Source: an uncultured Lachnospiraceae bacterium (lineage in GTDB: Bacteria > Bacillota > Clostridia > Lachnospirales > Lachnospiraceae). Taken from it: DNA of 64,000 bases. The notes under the pieces are model-generated. The model was not told the origin of the DNA. It saw nothing but the letters and a program-made list of their open reading frames with translations, and made no database searches. This document shows, piece after piece, positions 16,257-41,949 of this stretch. Location of the stretch: the NCBI GenBank assembly GCA_947652735.1, contig CANTEG010000015.1:2165-66164 (forward strand), in the 5' to 3' direction. Positions within the stretch are counted from its first letter, which is position 1; each line of letters starts with the position of its first letter. The position numbers and the translations under genes are program-made.

Positions 16257-16364
16257 GAACAAAGTGCTTTCAGCACTCTTTATGCCACCACTACTTTTAT
16301 GGCATTTTATAGCAGGATTTTTAATCCGGTCTTATAGGAAAGTACATAGAACTTTTCTATAAAG
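16257..16364 (+). repeat. Dispersed multi-hairpin intergenic repeat, copy A
   Basis: GAACAAAGTGC...AGCAGGATTTTTAATCC...TATAGGAAA...TTCTATAA; homologous to copies at 17021, 26401 and 41836. Confidence 0.85.
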
Positions 16365-16394
16365 TAAAAAGCACCCTTTCAGGTGCTTTTTACT
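16364..16394. terminator. Bidirectional terminator between murG and the HD gene
   Basis: GTAAAAAGCACC-CTTTCA-GGTGCTTTTTAC. Confidence 0.75.
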
Positions 16395-16398
16395 TTCC

Positions 16399-16989
16399 TT
16401 AAAATAACTCTTTTTCAAGCTGATATATATAGTTTTCTATCATCTGCATACGCTTCGTATACTCAGCCCTTGCAGCGTCTGTCTTGCATCTTCTTATCTT
16501 CGGCTTGTTAATCCTATAGTAATTCTTTATTCTATAGTATGCTTTTTTATAAGTAGGATCTTCCTCATTTGCAGTTGCCATTGCATCCCACAATATTCCT
16601 ACTGCTCCCACCTCATCAAGAAGGTCAGCATCCATAACTATTTTACATTCCAACGAAAGCTCTTTTTCAGTATCCTTATCCGTATGCATCATAATAATTT
16701 CACCGACCCTCTTTATGATAACAGGGTCAACACCGATGCTGTCAAGATATTCAACTGCAAGCTCAGCACCAACCTCAGCATGAGGACGAACTTCATCCCA
16801 GCCTATGTCATGCAATAAGGCAGCAAGTGCTATGACATCCAAATCGCCGCCTAACTTAGATTGGAGCTTTATAGCCCATCTATACACTCTCATCGTATGT
16901 TCATATCGGCTCCTGAACGGATAATTTGGTGGTCTGCCGTTTTCGGCAGTCATTTTTTTAACGTATTCTATTACCTCTGCGTAGTTCAT
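16399..16989 (-). CDS. HD-domain phosphohydrolase
   Basis: RYEHTMRV, ALLHDIG, DADLLD. Confidence 0.88.
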   Translation of the reverse strand: MNYAEVIEYVKKMTAENGRPPNYPFRSRYEHTMRVYRWAIKLQSKLGGDLDVIALAALLHDIGWDEVRPHAEVGAELAVEYLDSIGVDPVIIKRVGEIIMMHTDKDTEKELSLECKIVMDADLLDEVGAVGILWDAMATANEEDPTYKKAYYRIKNYYRINKPKIRRCKTDAARAEYTKRMQMIENYIYQLEKELF

Positions 16990-17020
16990 ATTACAGCCCC
17001 TTTAGTCAACAAATTCTTCA

Positions 17021-17136
17021 GAACAAAGTGCCTTTGGCACGCTCTATGCCGTCACTACCTCTATGGCACTTTGGGCGAATCTTAGCAGGATTTTTAATCC
17101 TGCCTTATAGGAAATTCAGAGAAATTTCCTATAAAG
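17021..17136 (+). repeat. Dispersed multi-hairpin intergenic repeat, copy B (long form)
   Basis: Same modules as copy A plus a GGGCGAATCTT segment. Confidence 0.85.
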
Positions 17137-17229
17137 CAAGGTAAGCATTATATTAAATCATAACATTTTTTCAAAAAAATATCTATACATTTTTCAAAAT
17201 ATATAATAACACTTTTCTATTAAATAAAA

Positions 17230-17491
17230 CCGTGCGGTTGGCTTTGTGAAGCTCTCATAGACGTTACCTTAACAGTTAACTCAGCCCAGGCACCCTCGCG
17301 GCGCACAAGAGTTCCTACTTAGTGCTGCTTCGTTCCCGACCTGACACGGTTCATAGGTTCCTGTCGCGCAAGACCCAAACATCAACGCCACTTACTAAGG
17401 GCAGCTCTACAAGAAACAACCCGAGACCAACCATCACTCCTGCTGTAGCGGATTGCAGGTACAGGGCACCGCTAACTCCCCAGCTGCACGG
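17230..17491 (-). ncRNA. ffs: Large (Bacillus/Clostridium-type) SRP RNA
   Basis: Minus strand has Alu-domain GGGGAGTTAGCGGTGCCCTGTACCTGCAATCCGC and S-domain GAACCGTGTCAGGTCGGGAACGAAGCAGC; ends pair (CCGTGC/GCACGG); lies downstream of tadA. Confidence 0.95.
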
Positions 17492-17585
17492 AAATTTTAT
17501 AACAATATAATATGCCTATAGTGACACCTTTAAAGTATACCCAAAATATTATGTTAAGTCAAGTTTTTTCACACATGCCACACAA

Positions 17586-18074
17586 TTATAATTTCTTCTT
17601 ATTATTTCTAAGCTCCGCAAAAAACATTTTCATCATATCGGCACATTCAGCCTCCAAAACGCCTTTCATTGTCTCAACCTGATGGTTAAATTGTTTGATA
17701 TCCAACAAATTAATAATGGAGCCTGCACATCCCGCCTTAGGGTTCATACATCCGATTACTACCCTTGGAATTCGTGCCTGCACAATGGCTCCTGCGCACA
17801 TTTGGCACGGTTCAAGAGTCACATACATGGTACAGTCCTCCAACCGCCAGTCACCTAAAATCTTTGACGCCTTTTTTATCGCTAAAATTTCGGCATGTGC
17901 CAATGTGGTTTTATCTAAATTTCTTCTGTTATAACCTCTTGCAATAATCTTTCCCTCATAAACGATTATACACCCAATGGGAACATCTCCATTTGCCCAT
18001 GCCTTTTTTGCCAAACGGACAGCCTGCCTCATATATTTTTCGTGTTCCTTTATGTTATCAACAGAAGCTTCCAT
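17586..18074 (-). CDS. tadA: tRNA adenosine(34) deaminase
   Basis: AHAEI, TLEPCQMCAGA, NPKAG, NHQV. Confidence 0.93.
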   Translation of the reverse strand: MEASVDNIKEHEKYMRQAVRLAKKAWANGDVPIGCIIVYEGKIIARGYNRRNLDKTTLAHAEILAIKKASKILGDWRLEDCTMYVTLEPCQMCAGAIVQARIPRVVIGCMNPKAGCAGSIINLLDIKQFNHQVETMKGVLEAECADMMKMFFAELRNNKKKL

Positions 18075-18276
18075 TATTTTTCTCCCTCTTTTGAATATAC
18101 TTGATACAGCCTTTCGAAGTATACTTTATCCTTGCAATGCTAAGAATAAATCATTATTATATACTTTAACAGGAATGTAATGTTCCCCATTAAATTTAAC
18201 AATCAAGCATCTTGAAGTATACACTATTAATATAATATTTTAAAGAAGTTTCCTATAAAACTCAAAGGAGGCTGCT

Positions 18277-18834
18277 ATGGGTCCATCTGTTAAATTTGCA
18301 GATAATCTAATTTTAAAGGTTGAAAATGAAAGCTGTGCAAAGAATGTTTTAGAATTATACAAACGTAACAAATTAATCTTTGAACAGTTTGAGCCAACAC
18401 GCCCAAATGGTTTTTATACATTAGAATACCATAAACACATGTTACACAGAGAATATATGGCATATCTTTCAGGTAAGTTTATCAGATATTACATTTACTC
18501 TGACAAAAATTCCTCCCGGATATTAGGTTCCATCAATTATAACATTATAAATACTGATAAAAATAAATATGCAGAATTGGGATACAAGGTAGATATTATG
18601 CACCAACGACAGGGTATTGCTTATAATGCCTGCCTGTCCACATTTGACATACTCTCCAATGAATATGGCATTGACCGCATAGATGCCCGTATACATCCTG
18701 ACAATATTGCATCTATCAGGCTGGCAGAGAAAATCGGTTTTAAACCGATTTGTCTTGAGCCTAAGAGTGCAAATATACTTGGTCACTATGTTGACTTAAT
18801 CCGTTATTCAGTTAATATTTCCGAAATCCAGTAG
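18277..18834 (+). CDS. GNAT N-acetyltransferase (RimJ/RimL-like)
   Basis: AELGYKV...HQRQGIA...IHPDNIASIRLAEKIGF. Confidence 0.85.
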   Translation: MGPSVKFADNLILKVENESCAKNVLELYKRNKLIFEQFEPTRPNGFYTLEYHKHMLHREYMAYLSGKFIRYYIYSDKNSSRILGSINYNIINTDKNKYAELGYKVDIMHQRQGIAYNACLSTFDILSNEYGIDRIDARIHPDNIASIRLAEKIGFKPICLEPKSANILGHYVDLIRYSVNISEIQ

Positions 18835-20135
18835 CCAAAGTTTCCTGTCATAAGCTTTGTTCTTTTTGCAGGCACGAAAATGTTAAATCCAAACATATTG
18901 GCAAGATACTTTTCTTTGTTTGTATATACGCCTGGAACCCCTATAACGTAGGCTTCCTTTCTCTCAAACTTTACCTTTCCCATCATTATGTATCTGTAAT
19001 GATAATATCCATGCGATAAAAAGCTGTTTATACCAAGCTTCCAATTGCTCATGGCAAGCCGCCCTATATCGTGGGGAACAATTTTTACACACTCTACAAA
19101 CTGACTGTCTGCAAAAAGCGGCAGCCTTGGAAATGTATCAAGCATTTCCCTGCATACATCCATACAGCTTTTATTTTCCTGCGCTTCCTGATTATTTTCC
19201 CTGCTGCTTTTTTTGTTTCCATTATCAATGGCAGTTTCATCCATGCAGTCTTCACTTGTCCCTGCCATATCCTCTTGGTCTTCCTGATTATCTTGGGAAT
19301 TTACAACTTCCTCTACGTCCCTCTCATCAGTATCTGTCATGTTTCCTCTCGTTACATGAGCATTGTCGATACCATCTGCCTGACTCATGTCAGCCTCACT
19401 GGTATCTCTCATATTTTCACTGGGCATATTGACAGTTTCGGCACCTTCTGACTGCATTATATTAGCGCCACCCACATCATCATCAAATACACGATTATTC
19501 CCAACACTGCCATCTCGGCTTACATCATCTTCCTTAGCAACTGTCATATCATTACTGACATTTTCCGTTTTGTCATCCTGATTATTCCTAACATTCTCTG
19601 CAACGGTTTTATTTACACTATTTCCAGCTTTCCCTGTCTGACTCCTGCCACCTTGATTTTCTTTCTCTGTGGCAGCATTTATTCCGTCTATCTTTATCTC
19701 CTCAGGCTTAAATGGGTATTCATCCCACATACCCGCCAAAATTTCTCCATCATCGCACACAAAAAAAAGACCATCGTATGTATCAAAGGATGCCCCATCA
19801 CCTAACGGGCTATCCCAATCAAGCTCAAACCTTTTTGTAATGGTGTCCCGTTCTTCAGGAGTAAAATGCATTTCCTCCAAGAAGCGAACCTTTGGGGCTA
19901 TTGCACCCTCCGGTCTGTACATAAGATACACAAGGCACCTGCAAGCTTGTCTTTTATACATTTTCATTCCGACCTGTATTCGTGCCGTATCTGTTTTTTT
20001 GTCCATCTTATTTCGTCTTGAGGAAACAACCCTGTATTCAGATGCGACACGCTGCACTTTTATAAAACCTGCATTCTCACATCTTGTGTTATTTCGGTAT
20101 TTGAATATATAGGATACCCATCTACCTTGCTGCAT
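18804..20135 (-). CDS. Hypothetical protein (DUF6128-like C-terminus, low-complexity acidic centre)
   Basis: C-terminal DIGRL...NSFLSHGYYHY...GVPG...MFGF; N/D/E/S-rich middle. Convergent overlap of 31 nt with the GNAT gene. Confidence 0.6.
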   Translation of the reverse strand: MQQGRWVSYIFKYRNNTRCENAGFIKVQRVASEYRVVSSRRNKMDKKTDTARIQVGMKMYKRQACRCLVYLMYRPEGAIAPKVRFLEEMHFTPEERDTITKRFELDWDSPLGDGASFDTYDGLFFVCDDGEILAGMWDEYPFKPEEIKIDGINAATEKENQGGRSQTGKAGNSVNKTVAENVRNNQDDKTENVSNDMTVAKEDDVSRDGSVGNNRVFDDDVGGANIMQSEGAETVNMPSENMRDTSEADMSQADGIDNAHVTRGNMTDTDERDVEEVVNSQDNQEDQEDMAGTSEDCMDETAIDNGNKKSSRENNQEAQENKSCMDVCREMLDTFPRLPLFADSQFVECVKIVPHDIGRLAMSNWKLGINSFLSHGYYHYRYIMMGKVKFERKEAYVIGVPGVYTNKEKYLANMFGFNIFVPAKRTKLMTGNFGYWISEILTE

Positions 20136-20343
20136 AGCAAAACCTCACTTCCCCTTAATTATTGTCCGAGCCATAAGGCGAAAATCTCCACACGCTTTTG
20201 CGCCTCTCCGTCATAAGCCGGTGAACCTGCGTCCAATAACACTTATAAATATATATGCCATGTGAGGTGAAAATATAACACGCTTATTAGAAATATCATA
20301 TACATTACCTATAATAAAAAATATAGTGTAAAATATTAAAACC

Positions 20344-20372
20344 TTGAATACATGTTATTTGCGTGTTATACT
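20344..20372 (+). promoter_or_regulatory. sigA promoter of the small toxin-like gene
   Basis: TTGAAT-N17-TATACT with extended TG. Confidence 0.75.
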
Positions 20373-20453
20373 ACACTTGTATAATTGAAAAGAAAGTCGG
20401 ATGTGGTTTTCGATTGTCAAATGCCCTCTAGTATTAAAGGAGGGTGATGCCCC

Positions 20454-20540
20454 ATGAACACATTAGAAGTTCTCACTCTATTGTTAGTTGTTTTTGCGGC
20501 TTTGTCATACATAGACAGTCATTTTAACAAAAAGAAATAG
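20454..20540 (+). CDS. 28-aa type I toxin-like membrane peptide
   Basis: Not in the ORF track. AAAGGAGGGTGA RBS; MNTLEVLTLLLVVFAALSYIDSHFNKKK is one TM helix plus a basic tail. Confidence 0.75.
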   Translation: MNTLEVLTLLLVVFAALSYIDSHFNKKK

Positions 20541-20632
20541 CATCCTGACCCCTAAGAAAAGTTTAGATGCTAGTTCTTTTACATTTTGAATTTTACTGAG
20601 GGCGCATCGGAACTATATCCGATTGCCTTTCT
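20529..20632 (-). ncRNA. Putative antisense antitoxin RNA
   Basis: Own promoter at 20639-20667; terminator hairpin TAGCATC/GATGCTA (20538-20572) followed by a U-tract that overlaps the toxin stop codon. Confidence 0.65.
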
Positions 20633-20638
20633 GATTAA

Positions 20639-20667
20639 ATTATACACTAGGGTGGCTGAGAAATCAA
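20639..20667 (-). promoter_or_regulatory. sigA promoter of the antisense RNA
   Basis: TTGATT-N17-TATAAT on the minus strand. Confidence 0.75.
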
Positions 20668-20704
20668 CTACCCTTTTAAATTTGTATATATTTGACACAT
20701 TAGC

Positions 20705-21190
20705 TTATTTCCCTACCAAACTATCATATTCCTGATTTGCCAGTTCCAGTTGTTTTATATAATCTGCTTTCATACGCTCGTGCCTTTTTATCTGATACAC
20801 AAAATTGTTCAAATTGGCGGAGCCACCCTTTTCCTCCTGCTTACAATGTATGTACATCGGGAAATGTTTCATAACACGTCTTACTGTATATCCAACAAAT
20901 GAAACAATTCCACCAAATATAATGATAGTAACATATGTATACGACAGCATATTCATTAAAAAGCCATATGGATTTGTAAGTATCCACATAAGCATCACTA
21001 TTGATATTACAACAAATACACATGTTGTCTTAAAGTCATTGTTTAATCTTTCTAATGCAAGCTTAAAACTGCTTATCTCTTTTTCCTCAATACCAACACT
21101 GATTCCAAGACTTTCAATTTTGGCCTCAAGCTGTTTCATCTGCTTATACTGTTCTGTGGTAACGTCATCTTCTTTATATGATAACTGCAC
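20705..21190 (-). CDS. Hypothetical 161-aa protein (coiled coil - 2 TM - coiled coil), paralog 1
   Basis: GTG start with GAGGGG RBS; colinear with 24112-24597. Confidence 0.75.
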   Translation of the reverse strand: MQLSYKEDDVTTEQYKQMKQLEAKIESLGISVGIEEKEISSFKLALERLNNDFKTTCVFVVISIVMLMWILTNPYGFLMNMLSYTYVTIIIFGGIVSFVGYTVRRVMKHFPMYIHCKQEEKGGSANLNNFVYQIKRHERMKADYIKQLELANQEYDSLVGK

Positions 21191-21207
21191 ACTGATTCCT
21201 CCCCTCG

Positions 21208-21891
21208 TTACACATCAGCCTGCAAGAGCTGTCCAGCATGGTTAAAGACATATTGTACGCCAACCCTACCTGCAATGTCCAAATCATGTGTAACAATTAT
21301 AACAGTCTTTCCTCTTTCATTTAGCTTACATAACTGTTCCACAATTATATCTTTGTTGTCCACATCCAATGCACCTGTAGGTTCATCTGCCAAAATAACC
21401 TCAGGGTCATTTACAATCGCCCTTGCTATCGATATCCGCTGCTTTTCTCCACCTGATAATTCATTCACATTTCTGTGCATATAGTCCGCCATATTTACAT
21501 CTTCAAGGGCTTTCTCTATCTTCTCTTTGTATTCACACTTTCTAATTTTTTTATCAAACATAAGCGGCACTGATACATTGTCATACACATTTCTATATGG
21601 TATTAAACCATTATTTTGCAATACATATCCAAAATATTTATTTCTGACATGTGACTTTTCACGCTCCGTATAATCATCAGTATTAATGCTATTTAAAAAA
21701 TACTGTCCTGATGTAATCTTGTCTATGCAGCCAATTATATTAAGTAATGTGGATTTGCCTATACCTGAAGGACCCGTAATGGCAATGAAATCCCCCTTAT
21801 TTACACGGAAATTAACATTATTTAATGGTGTGATTTTTTTATTCTTACCATCACTATATTCTTTTTTTACTCCCTTAAGTTCAATTATCAT
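21208..21891 (-). CDS. ABC transporter ATP-binding protein (LolD/MacB-type)
   Basis: GPSGIGKST, LSGGEKQR, LADEPTGALD, IVTHD. Confidence 0.93.
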   Translation of the reverse strand: MIIELKGVKKEYSDGKNKKITPLNNVNFRVNKGDFIAITGPSGIGKSTLLNIIGCIDKITSGQYFLNSINTDDYTEREKSHVRNKYFGYVLQNNGLIPYRNVYDNVSVPLMFDKKIRKCEYKEKIEKALEDVNMADYMHRNVNELSGGEKQRISIARAIVNDPEVILADEPTGALDVDNKDIIVEQLCKLNERGKTVIIVTHDLDIAGRVGVQYVFNHAGQLLQADV

Positions 21892-21913
21892 AACGCACTC
21901 CAATTCCAAAATA

Positions 21914-23056
21914 TTAAATATCTCTCTCAATTAAATCTATAATATGTTCCCGTTTCCAACATGCTCCAACAATCAGGGTCGAACCCATATACAATAAAAC
22001 AATAATCAAAAGTACAGCCAAACTATAATAAAGACTTATATAACCATCTAAAATTCCCTTTTTCATTAAAATGATGGAAACCGTCTCTCCCACAACCGAA
22101 CCAAGCACCGCCGATAATAATCCGTTAATTTTTATGAGCATTAATGCTTCCGTATAACCTGCTCCTTCAAGAAGCAGCACACCCAATTCCCGTCTTCTTC
22201 TGATAACGGAAATGTATATGCTTCCCAAAAACACAGATAACCCAACAATAAGCCCTGCTATCACAAATACCTTTTTCTGGTTTTTTTCATATATCAGATG
22301 CTCCTCGTTTACTCCGATTACATCATTACCATCACTTACATCACCGATATTTTCAAACAAAGACTCGAGCACATCACTTTCATACTTGTCATTAGGTTCC
22401 AATGTAAAAATACCCATATTGTCATCTCCACCGTAAAATGCATTGTCTGTCGTTATGATTGCATCTGCCAAATAAAGTTCATCATCCAAATCCACAATAA
22501 GCATATCATATATGAGATTCCCCTTGCCTGTCGGATAGTAAACCGCGTCCATGTCAAGAATACCACATACAGTTTTTTTCTTTTCAATAGGGGTTCCTGC
22601 CATATCATATCCTGAAACCTTTACAGTGTCTCCTATATCATATAGTTTCCCCAAGGACTTTGAAATAATTACCTGATTGTCACTTTCAATCGCTTTACCT
22701 TTTTTAAAGCTGTACGATATTGTATCTGCCAGAAATTTGTCATAAACATATGCCTCGCATACATTTTCGTCACACATCACACCTGTATGTCCGACAAAAT
22801 GTAACGTCCCATATTCCCGTGTTAGTTTTTCTATATCTGAATATGTATAATCCTCATTTTCAACAGTAATAAAGACCGTGTTTGAAAGCCTTTCCAATAA
22901 ACGGATATGCTTCTTTACATATCCCATGTTACAGAAGAAAAACAAACCTACAAAAGAAAGGGCAACTGAAAATATAAATATTCTGAAATTTTCTCTTTTG
23001 TCTGTCAAAAGGTCTTTTAAAACATAATTTATTTTCTTCAAAATTCCACCTGCCAT
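21914..23056 (-). CDS. ABC transporter permease (FtsX/MacB-like)
   Basis: N-terminal TM, large extracellular loop, RRRRELGVLLLEGA, three C-terminal TMs. Confidence 0.8.
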   Translation of the reverse strand: MAGGILKKINYVLKDLLTDKRENFRIFIFSVALSFVGLFFFCNMGYVKKHIRLLERLSNTVFITVENEDYTYSDIEKLTREYGTLHFVGHTGVMCDENVCEAYVYDKFLADTISYSFKKGKAIESDNQVIISKSLGKLYDIGDTVKVSGYDMAGTPIEKKKTVCGILDMDAVYYPTGKGNLIYDMLIVDLDDELYLADAIITTDNAFYGGDDNMGIFTLEPNDKYESDVLESLFENIGDVSDGNDVIGVNEEHLIYEKNQKKVFVIAGLIVGLSVFLGSIYISVIRRRRELGVLLLEGAGYTEALMLIKINGLLSAVLGSVVGETVSIILMKKGILDGYISLYYSLAVLLIIVLLYMGSTLIVGACWKREHIIDLIERDI

Positions 23057-23086
23057 TTTATCGTTTGATATGATTTGATGCCATCC

Positions 23087-23802
23087 TTAACATTCCCTGC
23101 TTATCATGCTGCCTGTATAATTTAGTGTAACTCTTATATATATCAATGCTTCAACTATATAACAGAGCATAAAAGCCAAAAACGTAATAAGATATGTGAC
23201 CGCTTTTATTTTATTAAAATTAAAATCTGTAACCATTAAAAGCAGGTTGCAGAGTACGGCACCAATTACAAAGCTTATAACACCTGCTCCAATTACCTGA
23301 ACAAGATATATTCTTCTGATATCCGATTTTGTCGCACCGCATCTCCTTAAAACAGCAATATCCAAGCTTTGCATATGCATAATTATTTCTACAAATACAA
23401 GTGCAGAATATAGCTTTGAGACGCACCATCAAACTTTCCATATGATAAATACTGATTTCTTTCCTCATTTTCCTGTGCATCAAAAACCAAATAGGAAGAA
23501 ATTTGATATTCATTTCCCCCAGAGCCCTCATTTGAATTTGATGCAGCAAGAAGCTCAATCACATTTATGTTTTTGTTGTTAATGTCATTTGGCATTTCAT
23601 CTACAATATCTATGCCAATACCCTCATCAAAATAGTAAGTATAATAATATTTCCCATCATCAGCTTTCTCACAGCTTTCATAAAAAAACTGCACCAGTAA
23701 AATATTTGAACACACAATCAGGCTCAAAACCGAAAGAAATACCGCAACCATAAACTTATTATACTTTGCCCATCCCAATACAAATTTTATTTGTTCCTTC
23801 AT
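23087..23802 (-). pseudogene. Internally deleted and frameshifted FtsX-like permease
   Basis: The N-terminal half (23389-23802) ends out of frame with the C-terminal FtsX half (YSALVFVEIIMHMQSLDIAVLRRCGA). Together they are much shorter than the neighbouring permease. Confidence 0.65.
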
Positions 23803-24111
23803 ATGTTCTCCTAACGCAAATGCCTACAGTAATTTAAAACTACTGTAGGTATAATATCTTTTTCATTTTTCAATTTTTACAATTAATAAGGGGGTATTTG
23901 TCCAACTGATACTATTACGCATAGTACCGCCTTGATTTTTTAAATTTATGATTTTTCTCCCCTTTTTTCAATTATGGGCATCAGCCCATCCCAAGATTGT
24001 TATAAACAACACCAGTATAAAAAATTAAATTTGTAAAATCAACTATTTTTTACACAATCTGACTTTTTTCAACTTTGTGAATAATAAATTGGCTCATGCC
24101 CTTACTTCAAG

Positions 24112-24597
24112 CTACTCTCCCTTTAAATTCACGTATTCTTGATTTAGCGGCTCTAACTCCTTTATGTACTCTGCTTTCCTGCGCTCATGCATTTTTATCT
24201 GATACACATAATTGGTCACGTCAGCAGAACCACCCTTTTCTTCCTGCCTGCAATGTATGTACATAGGAAAATGTTTTCTTGCCCGTTTAACAGTATATGC
24301 GATAAATAAAATGGTTCCGCAAAAAGTAAGAATGGCAATATGAAGTGTTGATATCATATTTAAAAAAAATCCATATGGATTTATAAATACCCTCACAGCT
24401 AACAATGCCGAAACTGCAACGAATAGACAAGTCACCTTAAATTCTCCCCTTAAAATTTCCAAGTCATGCTTTAAGTTATTTATCTCCTGCTCCTCAGCTT
24501 CAATATTTTTCTCAAGACTTATTATTTTTCTCTCAACCTCTGCCATCTGCTTATACTGTTCCTTAGGAATGTCATCTTTCCTGTGTACTAACTGCAT
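24112..24597 (-). CDS. Hypothetical 161-aa protein, paralog 2
   Basis: Start moved to MQLVHRK (RBS GGAGGGGAG); shares EQYKQM, NPYGF, KHFPMYIHCxQEEKGGSA and YQIKxHER with paralog 1. Confidence 0.75.
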   Translation of the reverse strand: MQLVHRKDDIPKEQYKQMAEVERKIISLEKNIEAEEQEINNLKHDLEILRGEFKVTCLFVAVSALLAVRVFINPYGFFLNMISTLHIAILTFCGTILFIAYTVKRARKHFPMYIHCRQEEKGGSADVTNYVYQIKMHERRKAEYIKELEPLNQEYVNLKGE

Positions 24598-24833
24598 ACT
24601 TTCTCCCCTCCCTTGAACATTATTCCGTTTTTTCTTTACCCTCTGCTTAAAACTATACTGTACTTGAACCTGAGCTGCAACATTGAATATTCGCATTGAC
24701 ACACATTTTATTCTATCATACCTGATACAAACAAATTTAGTAACGAAAAAACAAATACAAGATACTTTACACACTATATGTCCTTTGATAAAATTATATT
24801 GTTAATAAAATACATACTAAGGAGGATTTAAAC

Positions 24834-26372: not shown

Positions 26373-26400
26373 TATGTTAAAGCTCCTCAATCATAAGTAA

Positions 26401-26507
26401 GAACAAAGTGCTTTGGGCACTCTTTATACCGCCACTACTTTTATAGCACTTTATAGCAGGATTTTTAATCCTGCCTTATAGGAAAATACAGAGTACTTTC
26501 CTATAAA
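26401..26507 (+). repeat. Dispersed multi-hairpin intergenic repeat, copy C
   Basis: Short form like copy A; lies between convergent chemoreceptor genes. Confidence 0.85.
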
Positions 26508-26517
26508 ATAAAAACAA

Positions 26518-26553
26518 GCAGTTGACAGTTTCGGGGAAGAAACTGTCACTGCC
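26518..26553 (-). terminator. Intrinsic terminator
   Basis: GCAG-T-TGACAGTTT...AAACTGTCA-CTGC with a downstream U-rich tract on the minus strand. Confidence 0.6.
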
Positions 26554-26665
26554 TGTTTAAGGGGAGAGAGGATTCAATATATGAAAAGCTCTTACAGGTT
26601 TTAATATAACAACAAAATGTGTAAAAAGTATGTTTTCAATGTGAAATGATGTTCACAAATTGACA

Positions 26666-27265: not shown

Positions 27266-27411
27266 ATCAACTTACCTCCGTTCAGCATGTGATACTCTCA
27301 TTCTATACAATTTTTACATAAATTTCAACAGCGATTATATAAATGTTTGAAAAAATATTTACAAATCCCCACTGAGAAATTAGAATGTATATGTCAGTTC
27401 GGAGGTATGAT

Positions 27412-30398: not shown

Positions 30399-30493
30399 TG
30401 ATTGTATTTTAATCCCATATTTTGTATAATGAAACTTGATGCATTTAACAGGCATCATTGAAAGGTTTATAGTGTTCTTAGGAGGAAATATAC

Positions 30494-32026: not shown

Positions 32027-32031
32027 CGTGT

Positions 32032-32760: not shown

Positions 32761-32776
32761 AGGAGGTAACACACTT

Positions 32777-34223: not shown

Positions 34224-34236
34224 ACCGTAGCTTCTT

Positions 34237-34890
34237 CTATTGCTCAAGCTCGTATATATATACTTTCTCGTCAGGGTCAAACCTGTAAGCAGGAAGCTTT
34301 ATAATACTTGAAAGCTTAAACGGCGTAGACCTCATTGTCTCCATCATGGCATACGTACAATAATATAAAATCACCGTCACTTTTCTCGGAAAGTGCTTCA
34401 CAGACGCCACCAGCTTATTCAAAAAGTCCTCCAAAATATCTTTGGAAAACGGATTGAACATATAAAAGAAATTATCCTTTGACTCTATCACATAATCCTC
34501 AGCTTTCATGTTAAGGAGACAGAACTTTCTTTCCTGATTTTTAAATCTCACATGATAGTATGCCGCATTATCCTGCAAACGGTCATATATTTCCTTATCG
34601 TACTCCACACCCGTCACATTGCACATGAATCTCTGGTTGCAATAAAACAAAACCCTGCCCATACCACATCCAATATCAACAAGTGTATCCTGAGGTGTAA
34701 GGGTAACTTCATCAAATATTTTAATTAAACCCTCATACTCGGATGCCTCATAAGGATAATATTGTCCCTTTTCATTTCTTTTGCTAAATTCCTTATTTGC
34801 AAATACCACCTCCTCGTCAGCAGTATTCACGCCAAGAAATTTTTCAAACATTTCTTCCCTATCCACTATAGTACCCCTATCCTTGAACAT
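34237..34890 (-). CDS. Class I SAM-dependent methyltransferase
   Basis: VDIGCGMGR, GVEYD, YMFNPF. Confidence 0.8.
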   Translation of the reverse strand: MFKDRGTIVDREEMFEKFLGVNTADEEVVFANKEFSKRNEKGQYYPYEASEYEGLIKIFDEVTLTPQDTLVDIGCGMGRVLFYCNQRFMCNVTGVEYDKEIYDRLQDNAAYYHVRFKNQERKFCLLNMKAEDYVIESKDNFFYMFNPFSKDILEDFLNKLVASVKHFPRKVTVILYYCTYAMMETMRSTPFKLSSIIKLPAYRFDPDEKVYIYELEQ

Positions 34891-34962
34891 CCGTACATTC
34901 CAAATCTACTTGCACAAATTACTCTGATATACCATTCTGAGTTTCATAAAACTTGGCATATA

Positions 34963-35382
34963 TCATGCACGTTCTGTTATCAGAATATACAGGTTCATCA
35001 ATTGCGGCGGTTCCTTATCTCCATTCATGCTTAGTAAATATGTCACATCTACCACCTTACTTCCGTCTACGCGTTCCTCAAACAGGTACTCCTCCGTCTT
35101 TACGGAAACTGGTATCGTTCCAAATGCAAGTCCATATACCGCATGATGCACAAGACCTTCTTCGTAAATCAAATCTGATGTGACCTCACCGCGTTTTGTC
35201 ACTCTCATATTTTGGGGATTAATTTGTAAGGTTGAGCGTGTCATTTTTTTATTGCCTGACAAATCCTCAACATAGACAAGCCGATAACTGCGTTTCCCCT
35301 GTTTTTCCATTACCGCAAAAACATCTGACTCTGTACTATCCCCATTTTCATCTGTAGTAATAAACTTTATATTAACCTTCAT
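34963..35382 (-). CDS. DUF1934-like protein
   Basis: Beta-rich; YGLAFGTIPVSVKT resembles the family motif. Confidence 0.6.
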   Translation of the reverse strand: MKVNIKFITTDENGDSTESDVFAVMEKQGKRSYRLVYVEDLSGNKKMTRSTLQINPQNMRVTKRGEVTSDLIYEEGLVHHAVYGLAFGTIPVSVKTEEYLFEERVDGSKVVDVTYLLSMNGDKEPPQLMNLYILITERA

Positions 35383-35439
35383 ATATGAAATCCCTTTTTA
35401 CTTTGTTAGCTTTAATATATACAAATTTCAAATATTTAA

Positions 35440-36243
35440 TTAATAACTTTCTATATCAATAATATTTACACCGTCAACATGTATCGGTAAAACGCTGTTT
35501 GCAAAGGATTTAAATTTATCCACACCGTCACTTACATAAAAATCATAAACCGGTGACTTATCCTTTGAGCATACTAATCCATTTTCCCTAAGTATATTTT
35601 TAAGTTCCTTTGCCGTTTCGTAAGCAGGATTAACCAGCGTTACATTTTCTCCCATATATCTTTGTATCGGATTTGCAAGAAGCGGATAATGTGTACAGCC
35701 AAGCACAAGCACATCAACGTTATATGCCTTAAGCTCTGACAAATACCTGTCGACCATATCGTCAGTTATCCTGTCCTCAATCAGCCCCTCCTCAACCAGA
35801 GGCACAAACAGTGGACATGCCTTACCGATAACCGTTACATCACTGTCAATCTGTCTTATGTACTCCGTGTATATCCCTGACTTTACGGTCCCCTCCGTGG
35901 CAATGATACCTACACTTTTGGTCTTGGATTTTTCGGCAGCCATTTTTGCACCTGGTCTTACAACACCAACTACAGGCACCTCCATATCCGTTCTCATATC
36001 CTCAAGTGCAAGTGCACTTGCCGTGTTGCAGGCAACTACAATAGCCTTAACCTTTTTTGTCATCAAAAACCGTACAATCTGTTTTGAATACTTAAGCACA
36101 GTCTGTTTGGATTTACTGCCGTACGGAACTCTTGCTGTATCTCCAAAATAAATAACATCCTCACTGGGAAGCTGGCGCATAATTTCTCTCACAACGGTAA
36201 GTCCGCCTACTCCCGAATCAAATACTCCTATCGGCGCGTCCAT
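35440..36243 (-). CDS. murI: Glutamate racemase
   Basis: FDSGVGGLTV, VACNTASA, LGCTHYP. Confidence 0.96.
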   Translation of the reverse strand: MDAPIGVFDSGVGGLTVVREIMRQLPSEDVIYFGDTARVPYGSKSKQTVLKYSKQIVRFLMTKKVKAIVVACNTASALALEDMRTDMEVPVVGVVRPGAKMAAEKSKTKSVGIIATEGTVKSGIYTEYIRQIDSDVTVIGKACPLFVPLVEEGLIEDRITDDMVDRYLSELKAYNVDVLVLGCTHYPLLANPIQRYMGENVTLVNPAYETAKELKNILRENGLVCSKDKSPVYDFYVSDGVDKFKSFANSVLPIHVDGVNIIDIESY

Positions 36244-36252
36244 GCTTTCCTC

Positions 36253-37323
36253 CTACTCTCTTTCTCCTGACATTTCAATCAGCGTATCGACAAGCTTTTT
36301 TATATCATATCCCTTAGCATCCCAAAGCATTGGATACATGCTGATTGATGTAAAGCCCGGAAGTGTATTTATCTCGTTAAATACAACTTCGTTTGTTTCA
36401 TTTTCTAAGAAGAAATCTACCCGTGAAAGACCAAATCCATCAAGTGCATTAAAAATGCTGACTGCATCTTTCCTGATTTCATCCTCCACTCCTAGTGGAA
36501 GCTCAGGGCCTATTACAGTCTTGGACTCCCCGCTGTAATATTTTGCATCAAAATCATAGAAATCTGCTGCCGCAAGTATCTCACCCACACCCGATGCCCT
36601 TGCAGTCTTGTCATGTCCCAAAACCGCACACTCAAGCTCTCTTCCAAAAATTGTTTCCTCGACCAGAATTTTATAGTCATGCTCTGCCGCAATATTCAGT
36701 GCCGAAATAAGCCCTTCCCTGTCCTCTGCCTTTGAAACACCCTTGGACGAACCTGCCTTTGAAGGCTTTACAAAAACAGGATAATCAAGTTCTGCTTCCA
36801 CCCTGCCTACAACCTCATCCATGTCTGTCAACTGGTTCTTAAGAACGGGAACATATTTCGCCTGCCTGATATTCAGTGTATCAACAATCAGCTTTGTATA
36901 AAACTTATCCATTGCTGCTGCCGATGCAAGAACACCACATCCCACATACGGAATACCTGCTATCTCAAACAGCCCCTGTATCGTTCCGTCCTCTCCATAC
37001 ATTCCGTGAAGTACAGGGAAGACAACATCTATTTTAACACGTTCGGCATTTGTAACTGTATTTCCCTCAACCATTCCAACAATCATTTCACCTTTCGCAT
37101 CAGGTGATATAATTGCACTTTTTTTGCTCTGCCTCCAGCTTCCATCCTCAATAGATGCCATGCTGTCCGCCAGCAGCCACGTTCCCTCTTCTGTGATTCC
37201 AATCAAATAAGTGTTATATTTTTGCTCATCTATAGCTTTTGCAATCGTAACAACTGACATGCACGATATTTCATGCTCCGATGACCTTCCTCCGAATATA
37301 ACTGCGATATTTTTCTTTTCCAT
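36253..37323 (-). CDS. ddl: D-alanine--D-alanine ligase
   Basis: GGRSSEHEIS, LHGMYGEDG, GSSKG, FYDFDAKY, NEINTLPG. Start moved to MEKK (GGAGG RBS). Confidence 0.95.
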   Translation of the reverse strand: MEKKNIAVIFGGRSSEHEISCMSVVTIAKAIDEQKYNTYLIGITEEGTWLLADSMASIEDGSWRQSKKSAIISPDAKGEMIVGMVEGNTVTNAERVKIDVVFPVLHGMYGEDGTIQGLFEIAGIPYVGCGVLASAAAMDKFYTKLIVDTLNIRQAKYVPVLKNQLTDMDEVVGRVEAELDYPVFVKPSKAGSSKGVSKAEDREGLISALNIAAEHDYKILVEETIFGRELECAVLGHDKTARASGVGEILAAADFYDFDAKYYSGESKTVIGPELPLGVEDEIRKDAVSIFNALDGFGLSRVDFFLENETNEVVFNEINTLPGFTSISMYPMLWDAKGYDIKKLVDTLIEMSGERE

Positions 37324-37532
37324 GTTTTCCTCCGTATAATAAATCATTTATATATAATAAATGTTTTCAACTGTAATAAAAGAACTTCCTCATTATATCA
37401 TGTCGCCTATCGGCTCCATGTTTTTTTCGCATTATAGGTTTTTGTGCAAGCACAAAACCTGCAATGCTCATTATATCATTTGTCCATATGCAAAAGCAAT
37501 AGAAAAGGACAGACCCAGTCTGTCCCTTTATG

Positions 37533-38282
37533 CTATAGTATCCAGTCGAGAATTTTAAATCTTACTTTTACTTTGTCTCTTTTTACTTCTCTCGTTACAA
37601 ATAATTTTTCGTATTCCTCAGGTGATATACATCTGGCTATTTCCTCTGCATCCTCATTTGTCAAAACTGCTGCCGACTCATAGGTATAACATGTCATCGG
37701 ATATAAAACACACCAAAAGTTTTCCCCCTGCGCCTGCCCGATATCTATACGGAGTGCCTGATATTCGCCTGCCGGAAAAACCATGTCACCGTACTGTCTC
37801 ATTGGAAAATAATCATTGGAAATATACACATTTACGGGATATGCAAATCCTTTTTCTGTCACGGTATCAGCAGCTATGTCTTGTATATGCCACAAATTTG
37901 CGGCCAGATAATCCATTACCTCCTCTCTTGTTTTGTTTCCCTCAAGCTCACCGCCTATCTCCATAAGGACCGCATCCCTTACCGCATATTTTAATGCTAT
38001 ATCCTCGTCACTGTTACTGTTTGCTTTAACGTGAAATCTAAGTATTACATCCTCAAGACTGGTACATTCCGGTGGATTTGTGTTCGCAGTCAAAAGAGCA
38101 TCCGCATCTGACTGTTCATTTTCACCAAATACATTTACCACATTATCTGTATATTTATTTGCCATATTTCCATCTATAATTTTTTTAAAATGCATACCGT
38201 AGGATAAACCTAAGCCGCCTACCACACCTATAAATATACCGATAAATGCCCCACGCATTATTCTTCCCATATTACTTCTCAT
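37533..38282 (-). CDS. spoIIR: Stage II sporulation protein R
   Basis: LRFHVKANSNSDED, FPMRQYG, PAGEYQALRI, ENFWCVLYP. Confidence 0.92.
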   Translation of the reverse strand: MRSNMGRIMRGAFIGIFIGVVGGLGLSYGMHFKKIIDGNMANKYTDNVVNVFGENEQSDADALLTANTNPPECTSLEDVILRFHVKANSNSDEDIALKYAVRDAVLMEIGGELEGNKTREEVMDYLAANLWHIQDIAADTVTEKGFAYPVNVYISNDYFPMRQYGDMVFPAGEYQALRIDIGQAQGENFWCVLYPMTCYTYESAAVLTNEDAEEIARCISPEEYEKLFVTREVKRDKVKVRFKILDWIL

Positions 38283-38586
38283 AACATTACCTCCTAATTT
38301 GAATTACAGAAACCGGCAAAACTCTATTTTTTGCAGACATCGCTTGTACAATACTTTAGAAATCATGTGTTTTGCCCACCTCCGAAATTTACCTTCTGCA
38401 TATTGCATTTTGCCTACTTTCAATAGCATTCTTTCATAATAATTCCCATATTTTGGATTTTTAAACCTTGTTATTCTTTATTGAACATGTGGCTTTTTAA
38501 AATGGTAATTTTTTGTTTTTTTGCATGATAAGAAAAAAATGGTACATACTATCTCTACTATTTTTAAATATTTAAGAGGGATTGAC

Positions 38587-40134
38587 ATGGCAAATAATAA
38601 TCAAAACACCAATGTGGAAAGTTTATTTGACAGTAATAACAAATTAAAGGTTAACATTAAACCAAGCCTTGATGAAAATGTGTCCGTATTAAATACACTT
38701 TTTGACAAGTGTGGAGATGCGGTTCAAAAGCCATTTATTATAGAACGGGAACAAGGTCCCGTCCGAATTCACATTATTTATATTGATGGTCTTACGGATA
38801 ACGGCATGGTGGAAGAAACAATCATTAAACCTGTTTCCTACGAGTGGCGGTATGAAAATGAAAAAGACATATGGGATTCCATACTTTACCGTGAAGCACA
38901 AACCGTTGATATAAAAGAGGAAACATCCTTCGACCTTGTTATAGGCTCTGTGCTTAAGGGTGATACTGCCATATTTGTGGATGGATATGCCAAGGCACTT
39001 ATCATGTCCACAAAAAAGCTTCCGCTCAGGGGCATAAACACAAATGACAGCGAGGCAGGCATGAGGGGGCCCAGAGACAGCTTTAACGAAGGATTCCGTC
39101 AGTCAACAGCCCTCATCCGAAGACGTATCCGCGATTCTAAGCTTAAGGTTGAGCAAAGCTTTATCGGTCAACGTTCAAGAACTGACTATGCAATTATGTA
39201 TTTGTCAGACATTGCAAAACCTGAGCTTGTAGAGGAAATTAAAAACCGTCTAGAAAAATATGATATTGATGCAATATACGACAGTGGAATGGCGGAACAT
39301 CTTCTTGAAGAAACACCTTATTCCCCATTTCCTGTTTTTCAGTCAACGACACGCCCTGATAAGGTTGCAGCAGCAATTACCGAAGGGCGCGTTGCAATCG
39401 TGTTTGATAACTCGCCCGAAGTCATCATTGCTCCTGCAAATTTTAACATGCTGCTACAGACGTCTGATGACTACTACAACCGATGGGCTGTGGGTACATT
39501 TGCCAGAATTCTCCGATATATAGCAACCTTTATTTCTGTTACACTTCCCGGATTCTATGTGGCAATTACCGTTTACCAGAGTGAAATAATTCCGACAAAG
39601 CTTTTATATGCCATATCCTCCGCAAGGTCTCTTGTCACGTTCCCCATTGTGTTAGAGGTCTTGATAATGGAATTTTTATTTGAGCTTCTACGGGAAGCGG
39701 GCATACGTCTCCCTGGTCCTTTGGGCAACACAATCGGAGTAGTTGGAGGTCTTATCGTCGGACAGTCAGCCGTGGAGGCAGGAATCGTCAGCACAATGGT
39801 TGTCATAGTCGTTGCACTGACGGCAATTGCTTCATTTGCAATACCAAATGAAGTATTTGCATCCGTTTTCCGCCTGCTAAAATTTTTCATCCTTTTGACC
39901 TCTGCATGTTTTGGTCTTTACGGATTTATACTTGGACTTCTTATTATAGCAATCCATCTGTCTGAGCTTACAAGCTTTGGTGTTCCTTATATGGCACCAA
40001 CAGTAGGCGGCGGCATAAACGGAATGGCAGGAAGTCAGGACTTTATCGTCAGGTCTCCAATTAAAGTAATGGTGAACCGTCCTATATGGGCACAAAAGAA
40101 AAGCAGAAGAAGATTAAAGCAAAAGGGAGAGTGA
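38587..40134 (+). CDS. Spore germination receptor A subunit (GerA family)
   Basis: RGPRDSFNE, TRPDKVA, LREAGIRLPGPLG, VGQSAVEAG. Confidence 0.92.
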   Translation: MANNNQNTNVESLFDSNNKLKVNIKPSLDENVSVLNTLFDKCGDAVQKPFIIEREQGPVRIHIIYIDGLTDNGMVEETIIKPVSYEWRYENEKDIWDSILYREAQTVDIKEETSFDLVIGSVLKGDTAIFVDGYAKALIMSTKKLPLRGINTNDSEAGMRGPRDSFNEGFRQSTALIRRRIRDSKLKVEQSFIGQRSRTDYAIMYLSDIAKPELVEEIKNRLEKYDIDAIYDSGMAEHLLEETPYSPFPVFQSTTRPDKVAAAITEGRVAIVFDNSPEVIIAPANFNMLLQTSDDYYNRWAVGTFARILRYIATFISVTLPGFYVAITVYQSEIIPTKLLYAISSARSLVTFPIVLEVLIMEFLFELLREAGIRLPGPLGNTIGVVGGLIVGQSAVEAGIVSTMVVIVVALTAIASFAIPNEVFASVFRLLKFFILLTSACFGLYGFILGLLIIAIHLSELTSFGVPYMAPTVGGGINGMAGSQDFIVRSPIKVMVNRPIWAQKKSRRRLKQKGE

Positions 40135-40140
40135 TAATAA

Positions 40141-41799
40141 ATGTATCTTGATAACGGAAAAATATCTACAAGACAGGTTCTCCGTATAGGAATTTTGGAA
40201 AATATACCGATAGGAATTATTCTTGTTCCTTTTATCACAACAAAACTTGCAGGCCCCTACCATATTTTTGCCCTCCTGTTCGGGCTTATATTGTTTAGCT
40301 TATATTGCCTTATCATTTATGGTTTTTCCAGAAGCTTTCCTTTGGGATTTATAGATACGCTTCACACCTCAATGGGACTGTTCGGCCGTATACTGGAAGG
40401 CGTTTATTCATTGAGATATATTATTAAGGCTTCCTTAGTTGCCCTGTTTTTTTCACTTATTGTCCAACAGTACATGCTCAGAAGCTTTAACCTTTGGGTA
40501 ATTATTATTTCCTTTGTGCTGATATGCGGTTATGGCTCAGCACGTGATATTGAAAAACGTGGACGGCTTTTGGAGTTTTTATTTTGGTGGATGATAGTTC
40601 CCCTTATTTTTGTTGTCGTATTCTCCATAACAAATATTCAGTGGGATGTTTTTTCCATTCCAAAGATGGACATTTCAGTAATTACGTCAGGAAATTTGTG
40701 GGCGGGAAGCTATGGCGTTTTAATTGTCTTAAGCTCTGTGGAGCTTATGATAATGACAATTTACAGGGAACGAAAGCATCAATGGAAAAACAGCCTTAAC
40801 ATTTTTATATGGATTGTCATTGCCATCATACTTGCATACATTTATGTTGTGGGTATTCTCGGCGAAGGATGGGTAAGGAACGGCCAGGGCTCAGCCTTAA
40901 ATGTAATGCAGGCATCCTCATTTGCCAACGGAACCATTGAACGATTGGACTATCCTATTTTTGCATTTTGGATAATTGGCATTTTCGCAACAGCGAGCGG
41001 ATTCATGTTTTATGCAAAAGAATTTGCAGGCTCAATGTTACGGCTTGAACGTGCAAAAAGCTACAAATGGGTTACATTTGCAACAACGCTTTTGGTGCTT
41101 ATCACAATGATACTTTATAATGTATCCTGGTTCAGGGAATTTGTCGTGGCATATATCCTATGGGCAGACATTGCCATAAGCATTCTTGTGCCTTCCATTT
41201 TATGGATTGTTCAGAAATCAAAGCAAATTGCAAAGCAAAGAACACCAAAAGCAGCCGCAAAAAAAATCCCTGCCGGAAATGTAATTAAGCTTTTTCTTTT
41301 CATGGCATGTACCTCTGTCATTTTGACAGGCTGCGAGGGCGAAGATATTGTAAATGATCTTGTGGGCGGCATATCACAAAGTAACGCCATAGACCGAAAA
41401 ACACCATCCTTAGAGGGCAGATCCTATGTTATCCGACTTGGAATTTCAACAGACACGGAAGCTTCCGAATCGTCATATGGTTTTGCATTTGAAACAGCAG
41501 ACCTTTCCGAATATTCAGGTGACGCAGGCGGCTCTCTCAAAACAAATTCCTACTCCTGCAAAGCAACCAGTGTTGACGAAGCGATTGAACTGTTTTTTAG
41601 CGAAAACGGAACAACCCCTGATATGGGGCATATGGAAACTCTCTTGTTTGACGGAGACTGGCACAATTACACAGAGCTGCTTAAGGAGCTAAGCACTATG
41701 CCAAATATAAGCAAAGCCATTTCCGTCACCGACTCTTTGGGTAGTGAATATACACTTCGGGAGCTGATTAAAACCATGTATGATACGGTTTCTTATTAA
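40141..41799 (+). CDS. Spore germination B-type permease fused to a short GerC-like lipoprotein domain
   Basis: About 360 aa of polytopic permease (ERLDYP motif), then LTGC lipobox and LEGRSYVIRLGI. Confidence 0.75.
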   Translation: MYLDNGKISTRQVLRIGILENIPIGIILVPFITTKLAGPYHIFALLFGLILFSLYCLIIYGFSRSFPLGFIDTLHTSMGLFGRILEGVYSLRYIIKASLVALFFSLIVQQYMLRSFNLWVIIISFVLICGYGSARDIEKRGRLLEFLFWWMIVPLIFVVVFSITNIQWDVFSIPKMDISVITSGNLWAGSYGVLIVLSSVELMIMTIYRERKHQWKNSLNIFIWIVIAIILAYIYVVGILGEGWVRNGQGSALNVMQASSFANGTIERLDYPIFAFWIIGIFATASGFMFYAKEFAGSMLRLERAKSYKWVTFATTLLVLITMILYNVSWFREFVVAYILWADIAISILVPSILWIVQKSKQIAKQRTPKAAAKKIPAGNVIKLFLFMACTSVILTGCEGEDIVNDLVGGISQSNAIDRKTPSLEGRSYVIRLGISTDTEASESSYGFAFETADLSEYSGDAGGSLKTNSYSCKATSVDEAIELFFSENGTTPDMGHMETLLFDGDWHNYTELLKELSTMPNISKAISVTDSLGSEYTLRELIKTMYDTVSY

Positions 41800-41835
41800 A
41801 TAAAAAAAGCGAAACAATGTTTCGCTTTTTTTATT
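41799..41835. terminator. Bidirectional terminator
   Basis: AAAAAAAGCGAAACA-A-TGTTTCGCTTTTTTT. Confidence 0.8.
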
Positions 41836-41949
41836 TAATAGGAAAGCCTCCGTACTTTCCTATAAGGCAGGATTAAAAATCCTGCTAAGATTCGCCCAAA
41901 GTGCCATAAAAATAGTGGTGGCATAGAAAATGCCGAAAGCACTTTGTTC
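41836..41949 (-). repeat. Dispersed multi-hairpin intergenic repeat, copy D (long form, inverted)
   Basis: Reverse complement aligns with copy B. Confidence 0.85.

Follow-up and report, generated by a model that had tools for sequence, protein, structure and literature searches.

What is a structured sequence of about 100 nt that stands at four places in 64 kb of bacterial DNA, and how did it come to be there? The question is raised by a 64,000-nt stretch (hereafter, the window) of contig CANTEG010000015.1, which derives from a mouse-gut metagenome and belongs to an uncultured, spore-forming Lachnospiraceae with sporulation and germination genes. A preliminary description, made from the sequence alone, had reported four copies of a multi-hairpin intergenic repeat in the window, likened them to repetitive extragenic palindromes and bacterial interspersed mosaic elements (REP/BIME), and suggested that a HUH transposase might mobilize them. 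Here, we find that the copies belong to a modular family of elements that is present at some and absent from other orthologous sites, that its stems are kept by compensating changes, and that its members lie preferentially in one orientation against the T-tracts of terminators. Among the explanations considered, we lean towards a family of non-autonomous mobile elements whose hairpins would be recognized in single-stranded DNA by an enzyme acting in trans.

Four copies of one repeat family

Copy limits were determined by a covariance model, together with direct reading of the sequence. Copies A (16257-16364, + strand, 108 nt, 94.4 bits), B (17021-17136, + strand, 116 nt, 119.6 bits), C (26401-26508, + strand, 108 nt, 96.3 bits) and D (41834-41949, − strand, 116 nt, 114.9 bits) were recovered where they had been described, with C now ending at 26508 and D starting from 41834, and the model gave no fifth copy in the 64-kb window. 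A 31-nt core pattern with at most three mismatches matched four times in the window compared with 0.00 expected, and a 15-nt start motif matched four times compared with 0.35 expected, which excludes chance. Moreover, folding of all four copies beats that of shuffled sequence on either strand (z from −4.3 to −7.0).

To find relatives, one genome per species was scanned with a 20-mer of hairpin 3 as the probe, and about 45 true copies were found in four gut metagenome-assembled genomes (MAGs), three denoted ‘NALB’ and one other. In total, the covariance model gave 51 hits (46 distinct) from the window, these four GTDB-representative MAGs and a metagenome contig, L091. The latter was the only true member among the matches listed for the gapped pattern GAACAAAGYGYC-N(15-45)-AGCAGG-N(9-16)-TGCC in metagenomes; this pattern is too permissive, and the remaining listed matches, in soil and marine contigs, are due to chance. 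Contig depth on the element is 10-70 times that of its flanks, thus each genome must carry tens of copies, and together with the copies in related MAGs this bears out the earlier expectation of many copies genome-wide. In six relatives, from each of which 10-20 kb were sampled, zero copies were found; for four more distant relatives this is the result of the covariance model. Hairpin 3 itself was the search probe, and ascertainment therefore explains part of both its seeming invariance and the restricted host range.

Filled and empty sites

The element is mobile, as its presence and absence at orthologous sites demonstrate. Copy A is absent from a ∼93%-identical strain, that of X5 and X7, in which the contig joins position 16254 to 16365 and thus skips 110 nt. 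The empty site reads ...CTTACAA-TA-AAAAGCACC..., with an ambiguity of 2 nt (TA), and since the A-run and the terminator are kept there, both belong to the target. At the site of copy B, X9, which represents a congener, has ‘TT’ in place of the element, and copy B is also absent from four other relatives (L063-L069), which retain the −10 region of the HD-domain gene promoter and the leader. The third pair consists of L205 (MAG JAMPEW), in which the terminator hairpin of the 202-aa gene and its T-tract are immediately followed by the reverse form, and L204, which is empty at this place. Filled and empty sites therefore document mobility at A, at B and at the site shared by L205 and L204.

The sites of copies C and D are less simple to read. 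In X5, 111 unalignable letters replace the window sequence at the copy C site (26379-26509). The copy D site is filled in the X5-type strain (L201), lacks the element and has a different terminator in L202 and L203, and holds 108 unalignable letters in X9 and X10 (41736-41960). These unalignable letters may represent a copy that has diverged or been inverted, or else another terminator. At the NALB locus L003, mouse-gut runs gave no clean junction, due to the fact that the intergenic region has diverged.

Copies also change in number at one place. In X5 and X7, copy B has undergone a tandem duplication that includes 5 flanking bases, which is a slippage-type event. Orthologous arrays differ as well, with three short units plus remnants in L055 and one long plus one truncated short unit in L006. 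Tandem units are arranged head-to-tail and abut as AAAG|GAAC with nothing between them, and truncated copies of both polarities exist. Retroposition by target priming with an A-tail was considered and rejected: the A-run is that of the target at the one cleanly resolved empty site, that of copy A, and 3′- and 5′-truncated copies are equally common.

Anatomy and alternative folds

The 46 distinct copies (alignment A4) form one modular unit with an overall size of about 87-117 nt, in two length classes, a long form of ∼117 nt and a short form of ∼89 nt. Its parts follow in the order domain I, a variable linker (..GAATCCTA), hairpin 3 and hairpin 4. In domain I, the first bases of the element (GAACAAAG...) pair with a segment further inside. 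This gives the short form a simple hairpin, GAAC-AA-AGCGTC-TTC-GACGCT-GCA-GTTC, and in the long form CAAAGTGCC pairs with GGCACTTTG ∼32 nt downstream; thus the long form corresponds to the short hairpin with a loop insert of ∼29 nt. In copy B, domain I spans 17021-17076 on the + strand, with CAAAGTGCC at 17024-17032 paired with GGCACTTTG at 17065-17073.

The long-range stem competes for the same segments with a second fold, made of hairpin 1 (GTGCC/GGCAC, 17028-17040 in copy B, + strand) and a TATGCC..GGCA stem (TGCCG/TGGCA, 17047-17068). In long copies the GTGCC/GGCAC core of the long-range stem is ∼97% paired, though there is hardly any variation there. Six copies have a degenerate 3′ arm in hairpin 1, and zero two-sided changes were seen in the TGCC/GGCA stem. 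Within the window, copy A favours hairpin 1 (T-A compensation) and copy C favours the long-range stem (T12-A45). The GTGC..GCAC, GCAGGAT-TTTTA-ATCCTGC and TATAGGAAA..TTTCCTATA hairpins of the preliminary description are all present, whereas its TATGCC..GGCA stem is a possible fold of these segments with which the better-kept long-range stem competes.

Alignment of the four copies agrees with the earlier observation that B and D carry an additional 9-nt linker segment, GGGCGAATC, at 17073-17081 (B, + strand) and 41889-41897 (D), and that A and C are without it; B represents the full long form, and D is of the long form too. Forms defined by such insertions and deletions do exist, as the proposal of two subfamilies had it, but within the wider family it is the A/C form, not the B/D form, that is an unusual deletion variant. 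Downstream of the linker in copy B lies hairpin 3, GCAGGAT-TTTTA-ATCCTGC (7 bp, 17085-17103, + strand), which is degenerate in copy A (AGGATTTTTAATCCG; ATCCGGT) and whose inner stem is wholly swapped in a few copies of the family (GCTTC/GAAGC, GGTCC/GGACC or GCTCC/GGAGC). Hairpin 4, TTATAGGAAATT-CAGAGA-AATTTCCTATAA in copy B (17105-17134, + strand), is an A/T-rich stem of 12-14 bp with the end ...TATAAAG. Read in reverse, the element ends in a weak terminator-like hairpin (5-8 bp) followed by TTTGTTCT. Terminal inverted repeats were found in none of the 46 distinct copies (5′ GAACAAAGTGCC; 3′ ...CTTTCTTATAAAG), and the tetranucleotides GTAG and GCAG alternate at a place 12 nt away from hairpin 3 rather than at the foot of a hairpin.

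Several other identities were considered and rejected. A tRNA-like character, suggested by GTTCGAATC in the linker, finds no T-arm from the flanks, the motif varies and ARAGORN returned zero tRNAs; the linker GTTC pairs instead with the 5′ GAAC of the element. No consensus promoter match occurs inside any copy, and a small open reading frame (ORF) of 26 codons in copy A is not conserved in the others. The forward form has no GC-rich hairpin with a U-run and is thus not an intrinsic terminator; the terminators are separate, adjoining hairpins. Nor is the element an integron attC site, as it lacks R″/R′ core sites (RYYYAAC...GTTRRRY) and ends in GAACAAAG and TATAAAG; its neighbours are not co-oriented cassettes but housekeeping genes in mixed orientation (a murG-like gene, SRP RNA, a chemotaxis protein gene and germination genes).

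Covariation of the stems

Differences between copies preserve pairing, as had been claimed from the four copies alone. In alignment A4, pairing is found in 92.6% of cells compared with 35-51% in controls with slid partners. Two-sided changes occur in 15 of 36 pairs (69 cells), and on each of five measures 0 of 500 shuffles did as well. An alignment made by MAFFT only gave a pairing signal in the same direction. Examples of compensation are GTGCC/GGCAC versus GCGTC/GACGC and, in L058, AAAC/GTTT versus GAAC/GTTC, and in hairpin 4, 9 of 14 pairs are altered on both sides across the family. Since the copies share descent and the model was used to fit A4, these statistics are supportive rather than a strict test. 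Both covariation and mobility of the family are well supported. At paired positions G.T exceeds A.C by 86 to 34, many such cells being inherited; this is a hint that folding takes place in the GAACAAAG strand, and minimum free energies are equal on both strands.

Copies, transcripts and neighbouring genes

Stems that covary with an excess of G.U may also be kept by selection on transcripts, and the position of the copies relative to genes bears directly on this. Copies A, C and D lie between convergent genes, each adjoining a separate terminator-like hairpin, as the preliminary description had noted. Copy A stands 11 nt past the stop codon of a MurG-like gene, and its 3′ end abuts the bidirectional terminator hairpin AAAAAGCACC-CTTTCA-GGTGCTTTTT (16366-16391, no strand assigned). 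Copy C stands 29 nt past the stop codon of a gene for a methyl-accepting chemotaxis protein (MCP) and has a terminator-like hairpin on its 3′ side (26515-26555, no strand assigned). Copy D begins 25 nt after the stop codon of the 202-aa gene, and its 3′ end abuts the bidirectional terminator A7-GCGAAACATTGTTTCGC-T7 (41802-41832, no strand assigned). Copy B differs from these three, lying antisense within the 5′ leader of an HD-domain gene (16399-16989, − strand). Its start is 10 nt past the −10 hexamer in the promoter-like site of this gene (TTGAAA-16-TATAAT, 17174 to 17147, − strand, 11/12 matches), and the ribosome-binding site lies beyond copy B, thus the leader holds the whole reversed element. 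The 3′ end of the gene for the bacterial large signal recognition particle (SRP) RNA (17230-17491, − strand; RF01854, 184.6 bits) is 94 nt away from copy B. The statement that all copies sit at gene 3′ ends therefore holds for A, C and D only; B is in a leader, and most copies of relatives (22 of 25 co-directional cases) are antisense between a terminator and the start of the next gene.

These positions allow an RNA-level module, either a 3′-UTR (untranslated region) stabilizer or processing site in the sense direction, or a leader or attenuator in the reverse direction, in which selection on the transcript would keep the hairpins, with mobility as a secondary trait. Copies A, C and D, standing 11-29 nt past stop codons and ahead of the terminator, would be co-transcribed; a terminator-like hairpin and TTTGTTCT close the reverse strand, the reverse form in relatives is often 18-50 nt upstream of a start codon, copy B is wholly inside a leader, and domain I has two mutually exclusive folds. 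However, the copies point either way relative to genes and adjoin genes that are unrelated, single copies are dispensable as the filled and empty sites attest, most copies of relatives follow a terminator and should see little transcription, no Rfam family matches, and folding energy is equal on the two strands. We consider such a module unlikely as the primary role of the family.

Flanking sequences and orientation

The flanks reveal a preferred target. On the opposite strand the order is gene, terminator hairpin, T-run plus A, and then the reversed element. The 3′ flank begins with TAAA in 18 of 33 non-tandem copies (i.e. the flank ends ...TTTA on the reverse strand), and the remaining reverse-strand flank ends are TTTG, TTGA, CTTG, TATA or GTTC. 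On the 3′ side, 9 of 33 copies have a strict hairpin that starts within 12 nt, compared with 2 of 33 on the 5′ side, and the neighbouring gene on the 3′ side is directed towards the element in 30 of 42 cases. By hand tally, about 80% of copies are directly preceded by A.

Orientation is strongly biased. Between co-directional genes the GAACAAAG form runs antisense in 23 of 26 cases, and for 40 of 48 copies it occupies the strand that is locally C-rich (p = 3e-6), a preference that is confounded with gene orientation. Replication strand, terminator targeting and transcript-level selection are all possible causes of the bias on these data.

In the NALB MAGs, hairpins of the form GGGCTGTC...GACAGCCC recur adjoining elements (L003 ∼4178-4205, L050, L053, L054 ∼3725-3775 and L057), and in L054 a hairpin of this type replaces the inner part of hairpin 4. 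They may constitute a second repeat or a terminator family.

The junctions between element and target are ambiguous. There is a 2-nt TA overlap at copy A, CA on both sides of copy B and TTTTG on both sides in L205, and in most copies the two flanks are unlike. A classical cut-and-paste miniature inverted-repeat element of the IS630/Tc1-mariner type, comparable with RUP or Correia and duplicating a TA target, would account for the TA that fits either side of the clean empty site of copy A, for TA on both flanks in L004, L035 and L044, and for the size and intergenic location. Such elements should have terminal inverted repeats, which are lacking here (GAACAAAGTGCC versus CTTTATAAGAAA, the reverse complement of the other end); moreover, only about 12 of 41 copies have TA as their left flank, TA or CA is identical on both sides in only about 5 of 16 scorable copies (hand tally of flanks), and tandem units abut with nothing between them. 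On this evidence we regard a TA-duplicating element as highly improbable.

The same junctions may reflect strand exchange at a short core by a site-specific recombinase, IS110/bridge-RNA-like or IS607-like, which requires no terminal inverted repeats and leaves a junction repeat of 0-2 nt. The 2-nt identities at both junctions of A (TA) and B (CA), orientation-specific insertion beside a structured target and the absence of terminal inverted repeats are all consistent with it, but the core dinucleotide varies, targets are heterogeneous past the T-run, and no such recombinase was found near any copy examined. The non-coding ends of IS110 are also much longer than this element. Exchange at a short core is thus very improbable in our judgement.

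What could move the element

No transposase or integrase was found among the 28 proteins of the window by Pfam scans, and no multi-copy protein of the insertion sequence (IS) kind among the ORFs of 59 loci, which gave orthologues only. In 738 kb of related DNA (loci of 8-20 kb), a crude motif scan gave no real IS200-like HUH...Y protein, its yield being spurious antisense frames only.

The absence of terminal inverted repeats and of a fixed duplication, covarying hairpins that reach the ends, a one-sided T-rich flank and strand bias together fit a HUH/Y1 enzyme best. We therefore favour, by a modest degree, a family of non-autonomous mobile elements in which the hairpins serve as single-stranded DNA recognition structures. 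The elements are inserted and lost at single intergenic sites, preferentially landing right against the A/T tract of an intrinsic-terminator hairpin and in one fixed orientation. In this model, the hairpins, exposed in single-stranded DNA, would be recognized by a trans-acting enzyme encoded elsewhere in the genome, most plausibly a HUH/Y1 transposase of the IS200/IS605 or RAYT (REP-associated tyrosine transposase) type, and effects on neighbouring genes, e.g. of copy B in its 5′ leader, would be a side-effect.

Several observations weigh against this proposal. Zero transposases adjoin or lie near any copy examined, and the enzyme is therefore purely inferred. IS608-type ends differ from those found here, where the termini are inside or 2 nt from stems and the two end hairpins are unlike. 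The TTTA flank on the reverse strand, found in only about 55% of copies, is looser than the 4-5-nt targets of IS200/IS605, and the junctions are ambiguous, with TA at A, CA at B and TTTTG in L205. The strand that tolerates G.T is mostly the C-rich strand here, and in IS608 it is the opposite. Shared descent of the copies means that shuffle controls overstate significance, the strand bias is possibly a by-product of terminator targeting or transcript selection, and the use of the hairpin-3 20-mer as the probe accounts for part of the apparent invariance and host range.

Mobility and function may also be combined. A structured module could be mobile and terminator-seeking and yet functional once inserted, as a portable leader or attenuator, as an insulator between a terminator and the next gene, or as a partner, RNA or DNA, of some class of recombinase for which mobilization of ∼100-nt satellites is not so far known. 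If this were true, the two mutually exclusive folds of domain I would be functional. We take this combination to be quite improbable.

Relation to known repeats

The family is a previously uncatalogued one of a familiar type, small structured non-autonomous interspersed repeats in the tradition of REP/BIME, BOX and IS200/IS605 satellites. It has reached dozens of intergenic sites, for the most part next to terminators, within a single group of Lachnospiraceae of the mouse gut. Searches of Rfam gave no match, the window yielding only the SRP RNA at gathering thresholds, and at a permissive E-value (A, B, L003 and the L055 array) the best scores were 16-28 bits compared with thresholds of 43-106. 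Plasmid BLAST, phage BLAST and viral-contig scans gave no real match, and literature searches by the exact hairpin-3 sequence or by keyword gave no relevant description. In these searches, no Rfam family or described repeat accounts for the element.

With REP/BIME and their RAYT enzymes, and with REPINs, the family shares dispersed extragenic palindromes that are often found after genes or near terminators, mosaic structure, arrays and lineage specificity, as well as the lack of terminal inverted repeats and, here, of consistent target duplications, and the idea that such elements act as single-stranded hairpins. However, REPs are single imperfect palindromes of 20-40 nt with a conserved 5′ tetranucleotide, arranged in inverted pairs, whereas here three unlike hairpins in fixed order over 87-117 nt are repeated head-to-tail. 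Thus the comparison to REP/BIME is apt for a dispersed structured intergenic repeat, but not for the anatomy, which includes no conserved GTAG.

Palindrome-associated elements derived from IS200/IS605 likewise have no terminal inverted repeats and no target duplication (in the present family, no consistent one), and they have hairpins at both ends, a one-sided short T-rich insertion motif and strong strand bias. They differ in that the end hairpins of the present element are unlike and reach the termini, that its flank motif is present in only about 55% of copies, that no cognate TnpA or TnpB occurs in the sequence examined, and that the G.T-tolerant strand is mostly C-rich.

Pneumococcal BOX (boxA-boxB(n)-boxC), RUP, Correia, ERIC and bcr1 of Bacillus cereus are, like this element, modular multi-hairpin intergenic repeats of ∼100 nt with variable modules. 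Such repeats are co-transcribed with their neighbours, as copies A, C and D would be, and occur in tens to hundreds of copies in a narrow clade, as here, but what varies in the present family is the loop insert of the first hairpin together with the 9-nt linker, rather than the number of middle boxes. Terminal inverted repeats and TA duplications are features of RUP, Correia and ERIC; the present element has no such inverted repeats and no consistent TA duplication, and no sequence similarity to anything searched was detected. Targeting also has an analogy in class C group II introns, which are inserted in a specific orientation directly downstream of the stem-loop and T-tract of intrinsic terminators. 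These introns are at least 0.6-2 kb long with six domains and usually a reverse transcriptase gene, whereas the element is ∼100 nt and is devoid of intron domains, with no Rfam hit.

The family adds a defined, covariation-supported repeat to the Lachnospiraceae, a dominant but little characterized gut clade in which hardly any such elements are catalogued. It also has practical consequences. In Logan assemblies, contigs end within the element in all runs examined, i.e. the element breaks short-read assemblies, and differences in presence, absence and tandem copy number provide strain markers. Stable hairpins over ∼100 nt are placed by it in 3′ UTRs and 5′ leaders, e.g. ahead of the HD-domain gene. 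If the mobilizing enzyme were identified, fixed-orientation insertion by T-tracts would offer a tractable case of structure-directed targeting.

Hosts of the element

The HD-domain protein of the window is 83% identical to its counterpart in Coprococcus sp. CAG:782. Runs X9 and X10 match one NALB MAG at 100% identity across locus L003, and are thus the likely source of that MAG.

MAGs JAMPBO01 (L001-L004, L009, L011 etc.) and CAZWNL01 (L028, L048, L058) were deposited as ‘Bacteroides sp.’. Their loci are orthologous to those of ‘Clostridium sp.’ MAGs (L004 versus L008) and to the Lachnospiraceae window, and, judged by this orthology, the ‘Bacteroides sp.’ labels of MAGs carrying the element look wrong.

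Other features of the window

Other repeats occur in the window. A direct repeat of 183 nt (59215-59397 and 61692-61874, 83% identity, 2.5 kb apart) is unrelated to the element. An ORF on the − strand at 55190-56851 (553 aa, no Pfam hit) contains four to five tandem repeats of 42 nt, i.e. 14 codons (55286-55450 and 55775-55816).

The stretch 43991-46244 (about 44-48 kb) has a low GC content of 0.31 compared with about 0.39 elsewhere and holds three consecutive ORFs without Pfam hits. It adjoins a LytTR response regulator (47125-47853), is also found in the X5-type strain (L201) and may be an accessory or bacteriocin-like cluster. This regulator has a paralogue at 58324-59058, the two together with a GHKL histidine kinase (56959-58308) are agr-like modules, and a 38-nt repeat lies at the starts of both LytTR regulator genes. 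Finally, a direct repeat of 217 nt with 74% identity (20718-20934 and 24125-24341) falls in the − strand ORFs 20705-21190 and 24112-24774, which are probably paralogues.

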